Source: a virus
Taxonomy: Duplodnaviria; Caudoviricetes
Length of the DNA: 64,000 nucleotides
IMG/VR virus record: IMGVR_UViG_3300031993_000037
Coordinates: 1 to 64,000 of that record
Reading direction: 5' to 3' (one strand)
Positions 3,524-63,138 of the stretch are shown one piece after another. A program made the position numbers and the translations under genes. Numbering within the stretch: the stretch's first letter is position 1; each line of letters begins with the position of its first letter. A model generated the notes under the pieces. That model was not told where the DNA came from and searched no databases. It saw nothing but the letters and a program-made list of their open reading frames with translations.

Positions 3524-5527
3524 TTAAATTGTTGTGAGGTCATCGTGATAACCCGGAATACGTTCAACTTTAATCTTGTAGGCAGTTTTACCATAAAGAA
3601 TAAAGATTTCATTTTTGCCATAATCAACAAACTGGTCATTAACCTTGCTGAAATCTAACTGCGGATATTGAGTATTGCCAAAGAGAGTATCATAAATACG
3701 TTCTACGAAAGTTGTATTTCTTTTCATTGCAACTCCTTAGAACAAAATGTCCATAAGATAATCAGGTTCAAGACCTAAGTCGTTCATAAGAGCGTCTTCA
3801 ACGTCTTCTAAGCTTAAACCCATGATTGAGTCCTCAATGTCTGCCTTGAAGTCGTCAACTTCACGTTTAGCGTCTTCTTCAGACAATCCATCTCTACGCA
3901 TTAAAACTTCTGTGATACTGTCCATAACTACCTCACTTTGACATCCGAACTGTCAATCTGCTTTACGATAGTCCAATCCTTAAAGATATAGACTCCATTG
4001 TCATAGTTGGCACAATCAAGACGTTCAAGGCGATCAATGCCCATACTGAGTTCATAACCGCCAATCTCTTCACCGATAACCTGGCAAAGTCTTGCCCAAC
4101 CATAACAATCGTCTTCGGGTTTACGAACACCCTTTGACTTTGCAAGGTTAAGAAAGCTCTGAACATCTTCAGGACTTCCATGCCAATGAAGATAAATGCC
4201 GATTTCGTTTTTAATTAACGAGCCATTCTCTCTAAGAGCGTTTGTTGTTGTAATTACTGCTCTATTTCCCATAAAATACTCCTTGCCGATTTATTCGGCT
4301 AATTAAAGTGTTCTGTAATTATTTTCAGATGCCATTTCGACAATCTGCTTAGTACGTTTTTTAATTGGTGTTACTACGGCCTCATCTGTCATAAAGTTAT
4401 AGTCTACACGTCTAAAGTCAGTACCTTTCCACCAATTATCAGTTCCCCAATATCGAACAGTATCGCCACAAAAGTAGTAGTAAGTAAAAACATCACCGTT
4501 CAATTTGCCGTCAAATATTCCAAAAGTTTCAGAAATCATACATTCCTTGTCTTCCTGTGAAGCCTGGCAGAATGCAATCATGTGTTCTTCAACTTCTTCC
4601 TTGGAAAGATAACGTGACCAAGAATTAATTAATTTCTTCATACGCTATTCCTTGTTCTTGAAGTTGCAGTCGTCGAAATAGTCCGGTACTTCTACAACGA
4701 AAGCACCAGTTCCATTTGCATTAAGCCCGAAACAAACGTCTTCGGCGTAATCTCGACTTTCAAAGAAGAACGCCTTTTCGCCGTTGTTCCATTCACAATA
4801 CTTGTGCGGCACAACCTGGACTTTTGTAACATACTTGAAAGTATTGTCTGTGTTTAAGATTGCAATGACATAACGTACATTGCAAGTTGCCATTGTTCCA
4901 AATGTAGCCTTTTTTCTAGCCATATAAATCTCCTTACCGTACATTGACGGCCAATAAAAAAGGACTAGCCGTAAACTAGTCCTCGTTAAGTTCTCTTCGT
5001 GAAATCAATCTTTTCGGTGCTGAATCTGCAATTCTGTATTCCTTGATGTCGTGTCTAACATCTGCATAGGAATATTCCTTTTTGTCATATTCTGACAAAT
5101 CTTCCCAACAACCGCCGTAAAATCCTTGAATGACCCAAAGATAATTGTATTTGTTTTTTCTCATTTAGAACTCCTTGTCATCTTTAAGAAGACTGTCGGG
5201 AATATCATCGTTGTTACAGTCGCAGCCGACACCATGCCAATTAGTTCCCCAATGGTCTACGCAAAGCACAAAGCAGTCGAGAACATCGGAATAAGTAAAC
5301 AGAAGTCCAAAACTCTTTTCGAGGAAGCGGACATCACCTTCTGAAGCGTTAGTGATAAACCACTGATAAATTTCTGTTTCGTGTTCGCAGCCGTCTTCGT
5401 CTTCCCAAGTGAGAGAAGAACGGATATTATCCCAAACGTTCGGGTCAATACTTGGAACGTTATTGCACAACACAAAATCGTTATGCAACCAATGAACAGC
5501 GTTATAATAAGTTGTACGTCTAGTCAT
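3524..5527 (-). CDS. Seven small early hypothetical genes (3524-3727, 3737-3925, 3928-4272, 4303-4641, 4645-4923, 4976-5164, 5165-5527)
   Basis: Co-directional, abutting ORFs, most with AAGGAG; 3928 has MGNRAVI...IYLHWHG and 5165 has EIYQWFIT, both common phage families. Confidence 0.7.
4955..4983 (-). terminator. Intrinsic terminator
   Basis: AGGACTAG-tttacgg-CTAGTCCT followed by TTTTTATT on the minus strand. Confidence 0.75.
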
Positions 5528-5537
5528 AATTTACTCC

Positions 5538-6420
5538 TTACAAACCGAATTCAGCTAAAATTGCATTCAAGGATTTAGACTCCTTAAAACAAACATCATC
5601 TTCTGAAATCTGAGGTTCAGAAACCAACTTAATGAAATCTTCATGCGAAATGTATTCGCAAATTCCATCATTAACTTTTACCTGTGGCATAATAACTCCT
5701 TACGGTTCAAGACCGTTCCACAATAAAAAAGGCTTACACGAAACGAGCAAGCCCTAAACTAAACTCATAAAAACCGACTTCGCAGCTTTATGACTTGTAT
5801 AAAAATACTGTCTTACTTTACGACCCGACGAGTCGAAAATGGTAATGACAGAACCAACCAAACTTAAACGATAACCGTTGAAATCAGCGTAATAGTGCAT
5901 AAAACACCCCCTTTAATCAACTTCGGAAACCGACATTAAAATTCCCCATCGCTCGCTAAAGCGTGGAGATAAAGCAACGGCTTCTTCCTGAGAATCAGCC
6001 AAGAGATAATGAACACTTCTTGAGTAAACAGCCTTAAAGAGTTTCATAAAACACCCCCTTAAAGTTTCAATAAGATTTTCAAACCGTCAAAAAACTTTTC
6101 GATAACTGTTTTCTTTCTTGCATAGTTGCCGATAAGGTAGTAATCACCGCCGAGATAATAAGACTCTACGAAAAGATAACAACCGAAAAGCACCAAGAGA
6201 AAAACAGTCATAAAGATAGTGTAAAATAATCCTATACTCATAATTCACCGCCTTAAAATCTTGCATTCTGTCTTGCAAGTGCAATTTTCTTTTGAGTAGA
6301 CTCTAAAGCCATTGCACGCCATTTAGGTTTCATTTCTTCTTCTAAAGAAAGCCCCTTAAACTTAGCCTTAAAATTCTTTACCGCTAAGTCGCCCTGGATT
6401 TTCAATTCATTTTCTGACAT
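5538..6420 (-). CDS. Five very small early genes (5538-5690, 5754-5900, 5913-6047, 6059-6241, 6253-6420)
   Basis: Manual translation; each has an SD-like purine run; 6059-6241 has an N-terminal TM segment. Confidence 0.55.
5722..5754 (-). terminator. Intrinsic terminator
   Basis: GGCTTGC...GTAAGCC hairpin followed by TTTTTTATT on the minus strand. Confidence 0.65.
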
Positions 6421-6459
6421 AAAAACTCCTTACCGCTTAAAGCGGATTATTAAAAATCT

Positions 6460-6812
6460 AAAGTGCGAAAACGCACCCGGAAACAACCGCCCACTATTGA
6501 AAGTGGTTTTATCTTGCTATCGATAAAAGCTGCCTGCACGGTTGTATGTTGTAGTGTATAGTCCTACTTTGAAAAAGCTCCGCCCTTAAACGTGCCTTTT
6601 CCGTGCCTTCACGTTAACCGAAAACTTCGATTAAGGTTTTCTATACTTCCGAGAATGTTTCTATCTGGGTACATTCTAAAACCCTTGCTAAAACTTGCCC
6701 GGTAAAGTCAAAATTTAAAACCTGGCTTGAGTTTTTCTGCAATCGGTTTTACTCCGCATTCCGTTTTTGTTTCGGGGGAAAGTCCTACCGCATTCAATCT
6801 TTCAATGAAAAA
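6460..6812 (-). ncRNA. Candidate structured ncRNA, block B
   Basis: No ORF >=60 aa. Stems: AGAATGT/ACATTCT, GAAAAC/GTTTTC, AACGTG/CACGTT, ACAACCG/CGGTTGT enclosing TTTTATC/GATAAAA and CCACT/AGTGG, and GTGCG/CGCAC. Confidence 0.55.
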
Positions 6813-6914
6813 TTTCTCTTTTGTGGATTTCAACCCATTTCGAGTGTCGAAAAAATTAGCATTTAAAATGGTAACCCTAAAATGACGTTGAGAATTTTCA
6901 AATCAGATTTACTC

Positions 6915-6941
6915 GAATAGAAGTCTTAAACGGTATACCAA
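6915..6941. repeat. 27-bp inverted repeat, left arm (partner 7788-7814)
   Basis: GAATAGAAGTCTTAAACGGTATACCAA versus reverse complement of 7788-7814; 26/27 identical. Confidence 0.9.
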
Positions 6942-7071
6942 AAAGTTTGTGTCTTAAAACTTAAAACGCAAACCTTAAAAACGGAGTCTTAAAAGCAAAA
7001 ATCAAAAATCTAAATCCAGGTTTTAAATCTGGAAACCACTGCATTTTTAAGAATTTTGAAAATTCAAAAAA

Positions 7072-7112
7072 GCAAAAAAAAACGCTAGAGATAAAATATC
7101 CCTAGCGTTTTA
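7072..7112 (-). terminator. Intrinsic terminator after 7130 ORF
   Basis: AAAACGCTAG...CTAGCG followed by a long T run on the minus strand. Confidence 0.75.
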
Positions 7113-7129
7113 TTGGTACTCATCAGCAA

Positions 7130-7708
7130 TTAAGCCGATTTTTCTTTTTTGTTCACTATAACCAATTCTTTGTTATAACCTACTCCAAACATACCATTAA
7201 AAGTAGTTTTTAATTGGTTTACTTCACTTTCATTGATTGGGCGTACACCCTTGGAAATTTTCTGTTTGATAGTCTTTTTTACATTACTATCAAAGGCATT
7301 TTTTACTTCTACCGATTTTTCGGTAATAGCGTTTTTATCCCTAACAAGTATAGTTTTAATAAACTTGCTTTTAGGGAGTACGGCAAGAATAGGCTGATTT
7401 TGTTTGTTGTGAGATATAACAAAGCATCTATCAACCATAGTAACGGACAAACATTCAAAAAAGTTGATAACTTCGGCAAGTTTCAAAATCTTTGAATTGT
7501 CGTGGTAATCATAGTTACAACCATCCAAGGCTTCATAGTAAGTGTCACTTGAATATTCCATATTCAATACAAAGTTACAACCAATTCCAAGTTTTAAAAC
7601 AATGTTTGCAATGTCAACTATGGATTGATTTTTTTCACTATAACCACCCTTTGAATTTTTCAAAGTGTCAATTACCTTTACAGAACGGATAAAAATTGGA
7701 TTATTCAT
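7130..7708 (-). CDS. Hypothetical protein, first gene of the early transcript
   Basis: 192 aa ORF with SD AGGAG; enclosed by the 27-bp inverted repeats. Confidence 0.7.
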   Translation of the reverse strand: MNNPIFIRSVKVIDTLKNSKGGYSEKNQSIVDIANIVLKLGIGCNFVLNMEYSSDTYYEALDGCNYDYHDNSKILKLAEVINFFECLSVTMVDRCFVISHNKQNQPILAVLPKSKFIKTILVRDKNAITEKSVEVKNAFDSNVKKTIKQKISKGVRPINESEVNQLKTTFNGMFGVGYNKELVIVNKKEKSA

Positions 7709-7787
7709 ATTATTACTCCTACACGCTTAAAACGTGTTATATAGTGATTTTTGCTTATTAGGTAATTTACAACCGATTTTATATATA

Positions 7788-7814
7788 TTGGTATACCCTT
7801 TAAGACTTCTATTC
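7788..7814. repeat. 27-bp inverted repeat, right arm
   Basis: TTGGTATACCCTTTAAGACTTCTATTC. Confidence 0.9.
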
Positions 7815-8080
7815 CCTAGTTTCTACTTGGTAACTTACTAGCACGATTTTTCGGTTATCGGCTTAGACAATCCCTTGGCTTTCCGTAGTGTTTGACTTGC
7901 TTTCCCTTTCGGTACTCACCACTACTACTAAGTGTGGATAATCGGAATTACTCCCTAATTCAATAGGTATCATTACCCGTGTGGGTAACTCTTCATTCCC
8001 TAACCTTTACCCCGTCCATTTTCGGACGTGCTTTCAATCCCTTTCAATGTCAAAGAACTAGTTAGCATATCTATCTAACT
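7815..8080 (-). ncRNA. Candidate structured ncRNA/leader, block A
   Basis: Closing helix AGCACG/CGTGCT (8027-8032 with 7840-7845); stems CGTCC/GGACG, TTACCC/GGGTAA, GAATTA/TAATTC and GTAGTG/CACTAC; loop-E-like AGTA-CC-GAAA-GG-GAA at 7901-7916. Confidence 0.6.
8047..8058 (-). promoter_or_regulatory. boxA-like antitermination element
   Basis: GTTCTTTGACAT about 25 nt after the predicted start, directly behind a TAGTTAG/CTAACTA hairpin. Confidence 0.5.
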
Positions 8081-8086
8081 ATCTTT

Positions 8087-8115
8087 ATAGTATCACAATA
8101 TTAGAGATAATGCAA
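8087..8115 (-). promoter_or_regulatory. Strong sigma70-type early promoter
   Basis: TTGCAT-17 bp-TACTAT with extended TG and an upstream T-rich UP-like tract. Confidence 0.75.
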
Positions 8116-8691
8116 GAGAAAAAAGAAAAAAAATAAAAGAAAATATACAATATTAATACTACTATAAAAAATACTATATATATGTACAACCTACCCGCCC
8201 AGTAGGGAGAAGATAATCCGGCCGGGGGCTCTTGTCCTTCTCTGTGCGGAGTCAAATTTTTTCAAGGCCAAAATGACACAGTGATATGAGTAAAAATGAC
8301 ACAGTTATTATAAGAAGAATGTGTATAAAACTGAGGTATAAAGTGGGTAAAATGCATAAAAAGTGTATAAAAATTGTATATGAGTCTTTGGCAGGTCTAA
8401 AAAGGTATCGAAAATCACCGGGAAAATACAAGATTTTAAGCTATTTTTATGGTTTTACGGAAATAGTATGTATAAATATGCAGAAAGATGAGGTTTTATT
8501 GCATAAACGGCTGTTTTTATGGGGTGTATACGTTATATATATGCCTTATAGCAGTATATAGGCTTTTATAGGATAGTGAAGGAAGGGTAAGTGCGATGTA
8601 GATGATCGCTTATAGTCTGGAGGTAAAGGTTAGTGTGAGGGAGGGGTACCTTTATATATACGCGGAGAGGTTAGTGTGAAAATGGCGGAGG

Positions 8692-8892
8692 TCAATTTTT
8701 CTGAGGGAGTTCCATAATGTCCTGGGGCTGCAGGTTGAGGGCGGAGCATATCTTTCCTACAGAACCCATAGAGACGTTCTTGTCGTAGAAGAATGAGTTG
8801 ATCTGGTTTAATGAGAGACCTGTCAGTTCACTAAGCTGCTTTCTCGATATGTCGTTTTCTGCCATATACCGGCGGAGCTTTCCGAAGTTCAT
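8692..8892 (-). CDS. Cro/C1-type HTH regulator
   Basis: 66 aa; ISRKQLSELTGLS...KICSALNLQPQDIME pattern. Confidence 0.85.
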   Translation of the reverse strand: MNFGKLRRYMAENDISRKQLSELTGLSLNQINSFFYDKNVSMGSVGKICSALNLQPQDIMELPQKN

Positions 8893-9338
8893 ATGTAGTC
8901 CTTGCAGTCTGTTCCGATTACCTTCGCTATCTCCTGGACAGTAGTGAGGGCAATGTGCTTAAGTTTCTTTTTGCGGACCAGAAAGTTCTGTGCCTTATCC
9001 ATCGCCTTTGACACACCTGTAAGTGACATGCCGGCTTTACTGATGTCCTCTTCAAGTTTTTCCCAGTTTACCTTCACCATGTTCTCACCACCTCTCTCTC
9101 GTCTGATGACGGTAGTCTTGTGTTCAATTACAGTTCCGTCAGGCACATTCTCTATGACATCTTCAATACCGCATTCCAGTACTTCACATATCTTCTGAAT
9201 GGTAGTTGAGGTAAGGTTTTCCTTTCTGGAAATACATGAGCCGAGTGATGTGGCTGCAAAGCCGATTGCTACCGACAGTACATTCATCGGCATCTGCTTC
9301 TTTTCAAGTGTTCTGTATAAAGGTTCGTATGAAATCAT
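8889..9338 (-). CDS. Tandem Cro/C1-type HTH regulator (two HTH domains)
   Basis: MISYEPL...KICEVLECGIEDVIE and a second domain ...TVQEIAKVIG. Confidence 0.85.
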   Translation of the reverse strand: MISYEPLYRTLEKKQMPMNVLSVAIGFAATSLGSCISRKENLTSTTIQKICEVLECGIEDVIENVPDGTVIEHKTTVIRRERGGENMVKVNWEKLEEDISKAGMSLTGVSKAMDKAQNFLVRKKKLKHIALTTVQEIAKVIGTDCKDYI

Positions 9339-9342
9339 AATT

Positions 9343-9394
9343 TACTGTACCATTTAATTTAGAGGTTGTCAATCTCTAATATATGTGATACTAT
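9343..9394. promoter_or_regulatory. Overlapping divergent promoters
   Basis: Minus: TTGACA-17-TACAGT. Plus: TTGTCA-17-TACTAT, whose spacer ATCTCTAATAT..GTGA closely matches the 8087-8115 promoter spacer. Confidence 0.6.
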
Positions 9395-9412
9395 ATTTGT
9401 AAGGAGATTTAT

Positions 9413-9760
9413 ATGAAGAAGGGTATTTTAATTGTATTGATGATGATTATGGGTGCTCTGTGTTTTGCAGATACTATGTATGTTACTGATAAGATTTCCT
9501 GGGGTTTACAGGAAGATTTTAAGACGGTAGCAGCAGGAAAAATAAAAGGCATTTATCCATTATCTGGTGACAATTATATCATGGAAGTGGATGATGAAAA
9601 ATTTGTAATATATAAAGGTCTGATTTTTTATGATTTAGAAGATACTTATAAAAATAATATTCAGCATGTTAAATACTGGAAAATTGCGATAACAGAAGTA
9701 CACCCAAACTACTTTGTTTATACAAAGATTCTGATAAAAGAAGAAGATAATAAATTATGA
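9413..9760 (+). CDS. Exported protein with signal peptide (possible superinfection exclusion/lysogenic conversion)
   Basis: MKKGILIVLMMIMGALCFA signal peptide; AT-rich. Function is inference. Confidence 0.6.
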   Translation: MKKGILIVLMMIMGALCFADTMYVTDKISWGLQEDFKTVAAGKIKGIYPLSGDNYIMEVDDEKFVIYKGLIFYDLEDTYKNNIQHVKYWKIAITEVHPNYFVYTKILIKEEDNKL

Positions 9761-9999
9761 TCAATACCGATCCGTTTTTTAGGCTGCTCGAAGAACGTAA
9801 CCTCACCATGACGGTAGTCTCTCAATTAAGCGGTATTCCACCTAAGGACCTTGTGGCGTTCTCTAAAGGTCGTAAGATTACTGCTCACCTTGTCGGGCAG
9901 CTCTGCAGCGTTCTGAAATGTCAGCCGTGCGAGATTATAGAGTTCTCTAAAAGTGAAACAAAAGGTCACTGGGAATGGATTGCAGATAAGACAGAGTAG
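9757..9999 (+). CDS. Cro/C1-type HTH regulator
   Basis: LCSVLKCQPCEIIEF motif. Confidence 0.8.
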   Translation: MINTDPFFRLLEERNLTMTVVSQLSGIPPKDLVAFSKGRKITAHLVGQLCSVLKCQPCEIIEFSKSETKGHWEWIADKTE

Positions 10000-10215
10000 G
10001 TGTATAATGACTGTATGCTTACATTAAAGCCTTTGTTCGGCTACTTGGCATACAACAGAATCTCTGTAAAGGAACTGGCTCATAAATCCGGAGTCGGTTA
10101 TCCGGTCCTTTTATCTATGCGTAAAAACAATACCTTTAATAAAAGAAATCTTGATAAAATCTGTACCTGCCTTAATATCGGTATTAAGGATGTAATGCGT
10201 TACGAAGAAGATTAA
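10000..10215 (+). CDS. Cro/C1-type HTH regulator
   Basis: ISVKELAHKSGV...LDKICTCLNIGIKDVMRY. Confidence 0.8.
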   Translation: MYNDCMLTLKPLFGYLAYNRISVKELAHKSGVGYPVLLSMRKNNTFNKRNLDKICTCLNIGIKDVMRYEED

Positions 10216-11214
10216 TAAAGAATAAGTTCGATTTTACTGTCCGGACTGATGGACAGATCATTTATAATTGTTTTAATCTGTACGCCACAGATAAAGTCAT
10301 CTTTGTAGAAATACTCATGTCTGCCGTCGGTATAAATATCTGCACGACCGTCACGAGACCAGTCAATAAAAGAAAGATGGTTGTCAGATAAATATTTACG
10401 TATTTTTCCTTCAAGATACTCGTTCATCTTTCTGTTCAGTTCTTTTGCAGCCTTTATTTTTTCATCAAAGAAAGTCTCTTTAGGAACGGTTTCAAGTTCT
10501 GCAATAGCCTCTTTAAGTTTTTCGATGGAGACTCCACTCCAGCTTATTGTGCCGCACTGTTCCTTATCTGCTTTAGAAAAAGAGATAGGACCGTCTTCTT
10601 TTAATCCGACTTCAAGTTTATCCGAGATTACCTTTGAGATTGGTTTACCGTTCAGAAAGAAGTCATAATCTTTCATTCAGTTTTCTCCAGTTCTTCGTGA
10701 AGCTTTTTTATTTCTTTGTCACGCCAGAAGATTTTGTAGCGGAAGTAGATATTTTCAATAACGAGAAAAATTATGATACCTGGAATTATTGCAACTGCTG
10801 TCATTTTTCCACCTTCTCAAACCACTCACATCCGGCTTCTGAACAAGTCCAGTCAAGCCAATCCCATCCTTCGTGATATGGACCAAACTGTATGTAAAAG
10901 GATTTTGTATCTTTGCAGTGTTGCAATAAACCGTCCATAATAAGTGTATATCTATCCTTAAAGTTTTCCTCATACCATTTTTCTACAAACTTAAATTTGA
11001 CTTTATCCCCATGACAACACGGCGTTCCGTTTCTGTCTTGGATATAACCACCAAAACAAAGTTTATTTTCAATCTCTGGAAGAGAGTTGAGGAAAGTAAA
11101 CGCTTTATTACGGTCTTCTTGCCAGTAAGGTAGAGATGCGTCAGTGACACAACCACCAGCAATCATTATTTGCTTTTTTATCCAGTCTATAAGTTCTTTA
11201 GTTTCTTGTTTCAT
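10212..11214 (-). CDS. Hypothetical proteins (10212-10676, 10801-11214)
   Basis: ORF track; 10801 contains a YopX-like DRNG...GD.V fragment. Confidence 0.55.
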
Positions 11215-11437
11215 AAGTCTTCTCCGTTTTCCATAACAAGACCAATGCTTTCTTCAATCTCTTGAAAAGCAGCTTCGTATTCAGCGAGTTCCTTTTCGCT
11301 CATTGCGTTTCCGTGATGACACTGTTCTTTTGTTTCTGTTTTCTCTTTTTCCATTGTTTTCCTCACAACTTCGAGTTCTTCCTTTTCCTAACTGGGAAAA
11401 TAAAGGTCGATCTATATCAAACGGTATTTCTGTAAAT

Positions 11438-11989
11438 TCAATCCCCATAAGCCATCCTGTTAAACCAGACTGCTTTACCGCCACAAGATTTAAATTCCTT
11501 ACATTCATGTACATACTTGCACATTGGTACTAAAAACTCTTCAAATTCTGGATTTGTCTCAATTACAAGTTTACGAATAGTGTACATAGTCTCTTGCATT
11601 CGCTCTGACGCAGCTCCACAAAGTCTTTTATTCATTAAAGTCATAAGCGTTTCTGCATTAAGGTCTATGATTACATTTACCGGTGCGTCCTGTGGCTTTT
11701 TGTCTCTTGAAATTTCATTGTCGTTACGGTCATCACGCTGGCTTTTTACATATTTTTCAATTCCAACATGATGTCTTACAAGTTCAACGTGTAACCAATA
11801 AGGCATGTCTTCAATATAAAAAGCAAACGGTAACTTACGGATAGGAGAGTGTCTGCATCTGAGCATTTTTACTTTCCAATCATAATCTGGTGGATTTACA
11901 GCTTTTTTTCCTGCTGTAACCAATGCTCTTACTTTCGCTTTCATCCAGTCTTCTTCCGTTGGGTGTTCCCACATTTCAATTTTCATCAC
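11438..11989 (-). CDS. ThyX-like FAD-dependent thymidylate synthase family protein
   Basis: RHSPIR, ELVRHH...SQR and RLC motifs; shorter than cellular ThyX. Confidence 0.7.
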   Translation of the reverse strand: MMKIEMWEHPTEEDWMKAKVRALVTAGKKAVNPPDYDWKVKMLRCRHSPIRKLPFAFYIEDMPYWLHVELVRHHVGIEKYVKSQRDDRNDNEISRDKKPQDAPVNVIIDLNAETLMTLMNKRLCGAASERMQETMYTIRKLVIETNPEFEEFLVPMCKYVHECKEFKSCGGKAVWFNRMAYGD

Positions 11990-12446
11990 TTTACCTCTGT
12001 ATCAATTACAAAATAGATTTCTTCATTTTTACCGACAGACACTTTTAGTACATCACTAATGTTATAATGTGCATCTAAAACCTTTACACCAACAGGGTGA
12101 TTGGCCCAACCGTCATGGCAAAGTGTCTGTAATCTCGTTGTAAGCTCACCTAATGTAATAGATTTCATGCAGAAACCTCACTTCCAACAGTCAGAAGTTC
12201 AATACATCTAAGTAAGTCACCTTTTACTTCTTCCATACCATCAGTAGTCTCTGTGGCAACTTCATCTGCAATAGACATCATTACCTGTGCCAGGCGACTG
12301 TCCTTTAAGTCTGACTTTTCGCATGTTTTCTGAAGTTCATCCTTAGAATCTTTAAGTTTGCTTAGACTGTCATTAATTCTTTCAAGGTCTGTTCTAAGAA
12401 ATCTGAGGATAAAGTCTGCGTCTTTTGTGTTTAAAGTAATATCCAT
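11986..12446 (-). CDS. Two hypothetical proteins (11986-12168, 12165-12446)
   Basis: SD GGAGG supports the start at 12446 rather than 12509. Confidence 0.6.
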
Positions 12447-63057: not shown

Positions 63058-63138
63058 GTCAGAGTAGCACAAATGGTCTAGTGCTTTCTTTATCTCCTTA
63101 TAAAAGATTTGATGCAGGTTCGACTCCTGCCTCTGGCT
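63058..63138 (+). tRNA. tRNA-like RNA with aberrant anticodon arm (no assignable anticodon)
   Basis: Acceptor GTCAGAG/CTCTGGC, D-arm GCAC/GTGC, T-arm GCAGG-TTCGACT-CCTGC. Confidence 0.65.

Follow-up and report, generated by a model that had tools for sequence, protein, structure and literature searches.

A pair of complementary arms around a gene of a cattle-rumen phage, read as the strands of a long-range RNA helix

Intervening sequences (IVSs) that carry open reading frames (ORFs) are known from bacterial 23S rRNA, e.g., of Coxiella, Leptospira and Salmonella, and are excised by RNase III without religation. In Coxiella, a 28-bp stem, perfect but for one mismatch, closes the ORF-bearing IVS at its ends, and RNase III removes the insert; the element is inherited vertically at one site, and its ORF is decaying (PMC4990558). 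In this study, we describe a pair of inverted repeat arms enclosing a gene of a cattle-rumen phage, the DNA of which is present in bovine gut metagenomes. The window, i.e., the whole stretch of DNA analysed, is the first 64 kb of the 96,006-base IMG/VR phage record IMGVR_UViG_3300031993_000037. In our reading, the arms pair with each other in the RNA, forming a conserved long-range helix of 27 bp. That they act by RNA pairing in one way or another seems likely, and for the full chain of events, including a looped-out gene, two transcripts and a cut by RNase III, we estimate a probability of about 0.55.

By analogy, ORF-bearing IVSs of 23S rRNA would be the closest precedent for this phage module. 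Like the element of Coxiella, the phage insert is closed by a stem (27 bp, one mismatch), holds an ORF (192 aa) and occupies the same site in all relatives. It differs, however, in that its host RNA is not rRNA and has no Rfam match, in its length of 846–874 nt, which is about twice that of these IVSs, and in having its own Shine-Dalgarno sequence and a strong terminator. Moreover, its ORF is unrelated to S23p and is under purifying selection, whereas the Coxiella ORF is decaying, and cutting by RNase III is predicted here but demonstrated in Coxiella. The principle is known; the setting, an RNA that judging from its sequence belongs to no known family, would be new.

The arm pair and its conservation

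The whole locus reads on the minus strand, which is the strand of the locus RNA. On this strand, the 5' arm (GAAUAGAAGUCUUAAAGGGUAUACCAA) lies at positions 7788–7814 and the 3' arm (UUGGUAUACCGUUUAAGACUUCUAUUC) at 6915–6941; both are supported by repeat search, shuffles and covariation. The arms are 27 nt long, complementary at 26 of 27 positions (96%), separated by 846 nt and form the top-ranked inverted repeat. Ungapped self-BLAST gave 46.1 bits, about 12 standard deviations above the mean of 100 dinucleotide shuffles of positions 6000–9000 (23.8 ± 1.9, maximum 30.2), and the pair is the sole long-range inverted repeat at E ≤ 0.1 in the entire record. The inverted repeats of 26/27 identity, 846 bp apart, that had been proposed from the letters of the DNA (hereafter the original prediction) thus held up in the repeat search, the shuffles and the record-wide scan, and so did the enclosure of an ORF (7130–7708, minus strand, 192 aa) together with its terminator (7111 to 7079).

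Relatives of the locus were reached via homologues of the ORF, whose amino acid identity to the window is 94% in L004/L006, 62% in L007, 52% in L008 and 47% in L009, the last of which is cut inside the ORF. Layout and orientation are identical in the window and in all of these loci. In L006, L007 and L008, the arm pair again ranks first among the inverted repeats and occupies the corresponding site, with 24–26 of the 27 positions paired, and the helix measures 27 bp in every locus that has both arms. Loss of the pair in relatives, which would have spoken against the original prediction, was thus not seen. The letters of the 27-nt arms of L007 and L008 differ from those of the window: CGAUAAGUCUUUUAUUGAAUACCCGUA of L007 forms 25 Watson-Crick pairs and one G.U pair with its partner, and GGAAGUCUUUUCUAUCUAGUACCUAAA of L008 forms 24 Watson-Crick and two G.U pairs.

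Compensatory changes, a check proposed with the original prediction, were found. When the arms of the window and L007 were aligned on their common AAGUCUU, 25 homologous positions could be compared, 14 of which are unchanged, eight show double-sided changes with pairing kept and three fall into neither group. In L008, the middle segment comprises 10 nt instead of 8 nt in both arms, i.e., a matched 2-nt lengthening. Of the six arm positions that are not Watson-Crick pairs, three read as G.U on the ORF-sense strand and one reads as C.A. As far as the compared loci can tell, we conclude that the pairing of the arms is under selection. The words conserved within the arms are AAGUCUU/AAGRYUU and UACC/GGUA. 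The palindrome GGTATACC, to which attention had also been drawn, is present in both arms but not conserved in the relatives; since UACC/GGUA alone is kept there, the palindrome is incidental. Both arms are located outside the ORF, 79 nt upstream of its start and 188 nt downstream of its stop, and would therefore not be unwound by ribosomes.

A proposed structured RNA interrupted by a gene module

The arms are flanked by two structured non-coding blocks on the minus strand. The 5' block (7815–8081, about 265 nt) contains covarying hairpins, e.g., CGUCC/GGACG versus GUGAG/CUCAC and UUACCC/GGGUAA versus UUAUCC/GGAUAA. The 3' block (6461–6914, about 455 nt) was recognised by its conservation and covariation, with double-sided changes in 11 of its 144 predicted pairs, and ends in a weak terminator-like hairpin (6478 to 6461), followed by a Shine-Dalgarno sequence and the ATG (6420) of the next gene, after which further early genes follow. 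The compensatory changes in the hairpins of these flanking blocks are accompanied by G.U pairs of the sense strand. Being 94%, 84% and 79% identical to L006, L007 and L008, compared with 89%, 67% and 59% for the ORF, the 3' block is better conserved than the rest of the locus and than any neighbouring gene. Relative to L006, both blocks are 91–94% identical while the proportion of synonymous differences (pS) in the ORF is 0.45, so that the blocks are more conserved than synonymous sites. The gene after the 3' block is mosaic, with 79%, 55% and 96% identity to the three relatives; together with the conservation of the block, this suggests an RNA under strong constraint, around which modules have been exchanged.

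For a comparison of folds, the ORF module was replaced by a short linker in four loci. Folding of the spliced RNAs gave between −228 and −236 kcal/mol for the sense strand versus −200 to −209 kcal/mol for the complement, i.e., 22–36 kcal/mol better on the sense strand, and the consensus fold gave −121.6 versus −102.4 for sense and antisense. Rfam, in a search that covered ROOL, GOLLD, introns, riboswitches and rRNA, returned nothing credible for positions 4000–12000 at E ≤ 1 or for each block alone at E ≤ 10.

A putative sigma-70-like promoter precedes the 5' block at 8087–8115 (minus strand), consisting of TTGCAT, a 17-nt spacer and TACTAT; a TG precedes the −10 box by two bases. The promoter matches the consensus at 7 of 12 positions, and promoter-like elements occupy the aligned position in every relative, near consensus in L007 (TTGACA-17-TAGAAT) and L009 (TTGACA-17-TAATAT). 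The RNA would then start with a hairpin, UAGUUAG...CUAACUA (8059–8081), whose stem is kept with different sequence in L007 and L009, and directly behind it lies a boxA-like word, GUUCUUUGACAU (8047–8058). Within this word, UUUGACAU alone is invariant in the five sequences, L008 and L009 deviating in the 5' half. A search of five Firmicute genomes for GTTCTTTGAMAW gave one match, GTTCTTTGAAAA, which is located just behind a hairpin downstream of the 16S rRNA gene and two tRNA genes of a Lentilactobacillus genome, the position of the spacer boxA. The assignment of the phage word as boxA is plausible but not firm, because it has one genomic example and an invariant part limited to UUUGACAU; binding of Nus factors is a prediction.

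The 5' end of the locus thus resembles that of an rRNA operon, with a promoter, a hairpin, a boxA-like word close to one in a real Firmicute 16S-23S spacer and the strands of a long-range helix flanking a long intervening RNA. The difference is that the looped-out part of the phage RNA is an mRNA with a terminator instead of a mature rRNA, and that recruitment of Nus factors is only predicted. An analogy to the RNase III processing stems of boxA-antiterminated rRNA operons, put forward in the original prediction, is reasonable, since the arm pair covaries, the sense strand folds better and a boxA-like word heads the RNA.

Between the arms, four elements follow each other on the minus strand. 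The leader of the ORF (7709–7787) has the word UAUAUAAA, invariant in five sequences, just inside the helix, followed by a small hairpin and the Shine-Dalgarno sequence AGGAG (7721 to 7717). The ORF, P0001 (7130–7708, 192 aa), is conserved in the relatives but belongs to no known family and has no clear fold match. It ends before an intrinsic terminator (7079–7111) with a 15-bp stem and a run of nine U, whose counterparts in L007 and L008 occupy the corresponding site and are equally strong but differ in stem sequence. The last element is a U-rich spacer (6942–7078) with UUUAAG repeats about 14 nt apart, which are kept in the relatives. Conservation of the terminator and of the overall layout is evident from the compared sequences.

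We propose that transcription of the minus strand starts at the sigma-70-type promoter near 8087–8115 and would yield a structured leader RNA, about 780 nt in length and interrupted, at the helix, by a module of 846–874 nt comprising the leader with its Shine-Dalgarno sequence, the 192-aa gene, its own terminator and the U-rich repeat stretch. If transcription ends at the internal terminator, the transcript would carry the 5' arm only and serve as mRNA for the 192-aa protein. Read-through past this terminator may be aided by the boxA-like element, as in rRNA operons, and the longer transcripts would gain the 3' arm, so that the arms could pair, which would bring the two blocks together and leave the gene in a loop. 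A near-perfect 27-bp duplex is a textbook substrate of RNase III. If the host enzyme cut the arm duplex, the mRNA module would be released and the early operon would be headed by a structured RNA in two pieces. This last step, predicted by analogy, is the more tentative part of the proposal, and we give it somewhat less than an even chance. Transcription from the promoter, internal read-through, RNase III cleavage and any role of the protein are what we infer from the locus, whereas a long-range RNA stem that joins the two blocks and loops out the mRNA, the first option of the original prediction, is supported by paired conservation, compensatory changes and folding of the sense strand.

Several points weigh against this proposal, the main one being the strong and conserved intrinsic terminator between the arms. 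Antitermination of the rRNA type is known mainly to suppress Rho-dependent termination, and the fraction of transcripts containing both arms may consequently be small. Both arms were seen in three independent lineages only, which are mutually related, so that some of the co-variation could be inherited, and the sequence-conserved parts of the arms (AAGUCUU/AAGRYUU and UACC/GGUA) would also fit a protein-binding site. Besides the 27-bp helix, no covarying helix between the blocks was found, which leaves this helix as the one element that ties them into a single RNA architecture. A second, nested helix (7745–7761/6988–7004), suggested by minimum-free-energy folding, was no better than shuffles (z −0.3 to −1.4) and was dropped. 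Finally, no RNA run was found among the listed sequencing runs that contain the locus; one run guessed to be RNA contained pieces of 36–110 nt only.

If the proposal is true, loop-out and excision of a gene, known from the IVSs and processing stems of rRNA, also work in a regulatory or structural phage RNA of no described family. The locus would be a compact test case for the formation of a long-range helix across an intrinsic terminator and for boxA-type complexes as chaperones of such pairing outside rRNA operons. It further raises the question of the role of a highly constrained phage RNA of about 780 nt heading an early operon, and the 3' block is a candidate for a new large structured RNA of rumen phages, with the 192-aa protein as its candidate partner.

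Competing explanations of the arms

An alternative option would be a mere feedback device, in which read-through mRNA gains the 3' arm, pairing and RNase III inactivate, destabilise or else stabilise the mRNA of the 192-aa protein and the blocks are independent leaders. Such a function would resemble the retroregulation of lambda int by sib, although sib is a local hairpin and does not involve pairing over 850 nt. The position of the 3' arm beyond a conserved terminator fits this idea, as does the order of promoter, boxA-like site, first small gene, terminator and early genes, which is reminiscent of lambda pL-nutL-N-tL1; nothing, however, shows that the 192-aa protein is an antiterminator. 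The lack of a further covarying inter-block helix and the very different rates at which the 5' and 3' blocks evolve (58% vs 84% identity to L007) would likewise be expected of independent leaders. On the other hand, the helix adjoins conserved junction sequences, AGUAGAAAC and AGUAAAUCUGAUUUG, on both sides, which suggests that it is embedded in a larger fold. Overall, we consider a device of this kind unlikely.

Rather doubtful, too, are two variants that keep the RNA helix but assign it to another kind of element. The locus could be a self-contained ribonucleoprotein gene of a novel type, in which a large and ornate phage RNA of about 780 nt has the gene of its protein partner nested in one of its helices, the stem rejoining the RNA halves and freeing the mRNA. 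Alternatively, the module could represent a new class of ORF-terminator elements that colonises the hairpin loops of structured RNA genes other than those of rRNA. No relative that lacks the gene, or has a different gene in its place, was found among the compared loci.

It is improbable that the arms and the UUUAAG/TTTAAG repeats are simply binding sites of the 192-aa product or of a host factor, either as DNA (operator looping, iteron-like origin sites) or as RNA, with complementarity as a by-product of two inverted site copies. Conserved AAGTCTT and TACC words in the arms and the four or five TTTAAG repeats at about 14 nt that are kept in the relatives would be in line with such sites, but the variable positions between the conserved words stay complementary and the 2-nt indel is matched in both arms. 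The spacing of about 14 nt, moreover, fits neither helical phasing nor typical iterons. CTTAAA words are present at 6953, 6960, 6974 and 6988; the repeated CTTAAAA/A-tract words of the original prediction therefore exist, but at about 14 nt (13–15 nt in the relatives) they are not in helical phase, and "phased A-tracts" is not an apt term. Four copies of UUUAAG are present in the window and in L007 and two in L008, at intervals of 13–15 nt (27 nt in L008). They occupy positions 6953–7000 of the window, 3697–3745 of L007 and 3445–3480 of L008 and are kept although their surroundings differ; a further copy is contained in the 3' arm of the window. An internal promoter for the 3' block was not apparent, as the aligned spacer contains no conserved −35/−10 elements.

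The protein itself gives some hints of nucleic acid binding, in that the conserved residues of its family are mostly basic and the weak structural matches of model residues 23–114 are to nucleic-acid-binding domains, namely R3H (Z 4.3), winged-helix repressors and the iteron-binding initiators RepE (Z 3.6) and Pi (Z 3.1). All of these matches are below the level that is meaningful by the calibration of the tool. The confident AlphaFold model (predicted local distance difference test, pLDDT, 87.6) was compared by VIA-align with about 48,000 chains, the best Z being 4.3; Foldseek searches of PDB and BFVD returned nothing at E ≤ 0.001 and the ESM Atlas contained no usable match. Ratios of nonsynonymous to synonymous changes (dN/dS) of 0.04, 0.18 and 0.24 relative to L006, L007 and L008 clearly point to purifying selection on the ORF.

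Equally improbable is a DNA element, i.e., terminal inverted repeats of a mobile cassette or crossover sites of the Hin/Gin type (26 bp, about 1 kb apart, with a 190-aa invertase inside), with the 192-aa protein as recombinase. The geometry of the locus (27-bp repeats, 846 bp, 192-aa gene) is strikingly similar to that of the Salmonella H segment, where inverted repeats of about 26–27 bp enclose a gene for about 190 aa at a distance of about 0.9–1 kb, and to the Hin/Gin/Cin systems in general. The AAGNCTT word in both arms could be a protein site, and one protein binding both ends would also make the arms co-evolve. Complementarity at almost every position and the matched 2-nt indel, however, are more than a protein site needs, and folding favours the sense over the antisense strand.

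The arms, moreover, are not built of two half-sites, and the ORF has no match to a resolvase, transposase or integrase in Pfam, NCBIfam, PHROGs or PADLOC, and no serine-recombinase signature. Over 25 family members, M1, G21, G43, F46 and D93 are the only invariant residues, without a conserved catalytic Ser, Tyr or acidic triad, and for the confident model neither an RNase H-like nor a resolvase-like match was obtained. A single orientation was seen in the window, L004/L006, L007, L008 and L009. The sequencing runs were examined as contigs, from which rare variants are dropped; in contigs of three runs, both arms are spanned in the reference orientation, and joints that change strand or skip were not found. 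No target duplication or direct repeat adjoins the arms, the element is single-copy in the 96-kb record and all relatives are occupied, with no empty site. An invertible segment or paired DNA sites, the second option of the original prediction, hence found no recombinase signature, inverted orientation or strand-changing joint in its favour. An insertion sequence or miniature inverted-repeat transposable element found no support either, as target duplication, further copies, an empty site and a transposase signature were all absent.

Two further candidates can be dismissed briefly. Phage T4 td carries the I-TevI ORF in a peripheral loop of its group I intron, and a protein gene in a helix loop of a large structured phage RNA is shared with group I and II introns; in the phage locus, however, no intron covariance model matched at E ≤ 10, the place of exons is taken by a promoter-like element upstream and a separate gene downstream, the ORF lacks a homing-endonuclease or maturase signature and an intrinsic terminator is located inside the loop. 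The likeness to the a1/a2 arms of retrons, also raised in the original prediction, did not stand, because the reverse transcriptase of the phage belongs to class UG27 and has its own array of non-coding RNA (ncRNA) elsewhere. Retron a1/a2 arms flank an ncRNA of about 150–250 nt directly upstream of a retron-type reverse transcriptase, whereas the arms described here are 846 nt apart around a protein gene and about 5.9 kb from the enzyme.

Relatives of the gene and minor observations

About 30 metagenomic relatives of the 192-aa ORF were found, with lengths of 184–218 aa. Matches to P0001 were absent from Pfam, PHROG, PADLOC, NCBIfam and the PDB sequences, and tblastn of GenBank phages was blank. 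A Pfam scan at E ≤ 1 gave only DUF4364 and Ribosomal_S8, both sub-threshold and at chance level, and no S23p; distant members of the family were likewise uninformative in Pfam. When the protein, three RNA words and two distant homologues served as queries, scans of IMG/VR returned one close relative and the chance match L095 only, and a 17-mer scan of genome contigs gave 84 matches at chance level, none of them homologous. The C-terminal residues 117–183 of the protein, a long beta-hairpin followed by a helix, match seven stretches of the metagenomic protein P0024 (820 aa) and may be a repeatable module.

Within the locus, the motif CAUUGAAAG(G)GAUUGAA(A/U)GC behind the boxA-like word (8030–8058) recurs in the 3' block at 6785–6812 as UCAUUGAAAGAUUGAAUGC, and both copies are kept in the relatives. 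The DNA upstream of the promoter-like element is non-coding and poorly conserved. Two 23-nt direct repeats in tandem (AAAATGACACAGT...), located at 8270–8315, some 170 nt upstream of the promoter of the RNA and downstream of a Cro/CI-type helix-turn-helix gene (8889–9338), are candidate operator sites.

The UG27 reverse transcriptase (E = 7.6e-130) is encoded on the minus strand at 973 to 2, downstream of the arms, and is cut by the contig start. According to a 2026 preprint (10.64898/2026.09.22.753630), UG27 enzymes work with arrays of ncRNA units that are about 150 nt long and carry the motif AUC-N7-UANAG. In the window, ATC-N7-TANAG is not enriched (6 matches vs 10.5 expected), while seven minus-strand copies, 126–131 nt apart, are located outside the window at positions 88,982–89,753 of the record. 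The structured blocks were accordingly rejected as UG27 ncRNA, and the array near 89 kb looks like the enzyme's own, split from its gene by the contig ends. At the other end of the window (63058–63138), ARAGORN predicted a tRNA-like gene, with no amino acid assigned and with the four-base anticodon ctcc.

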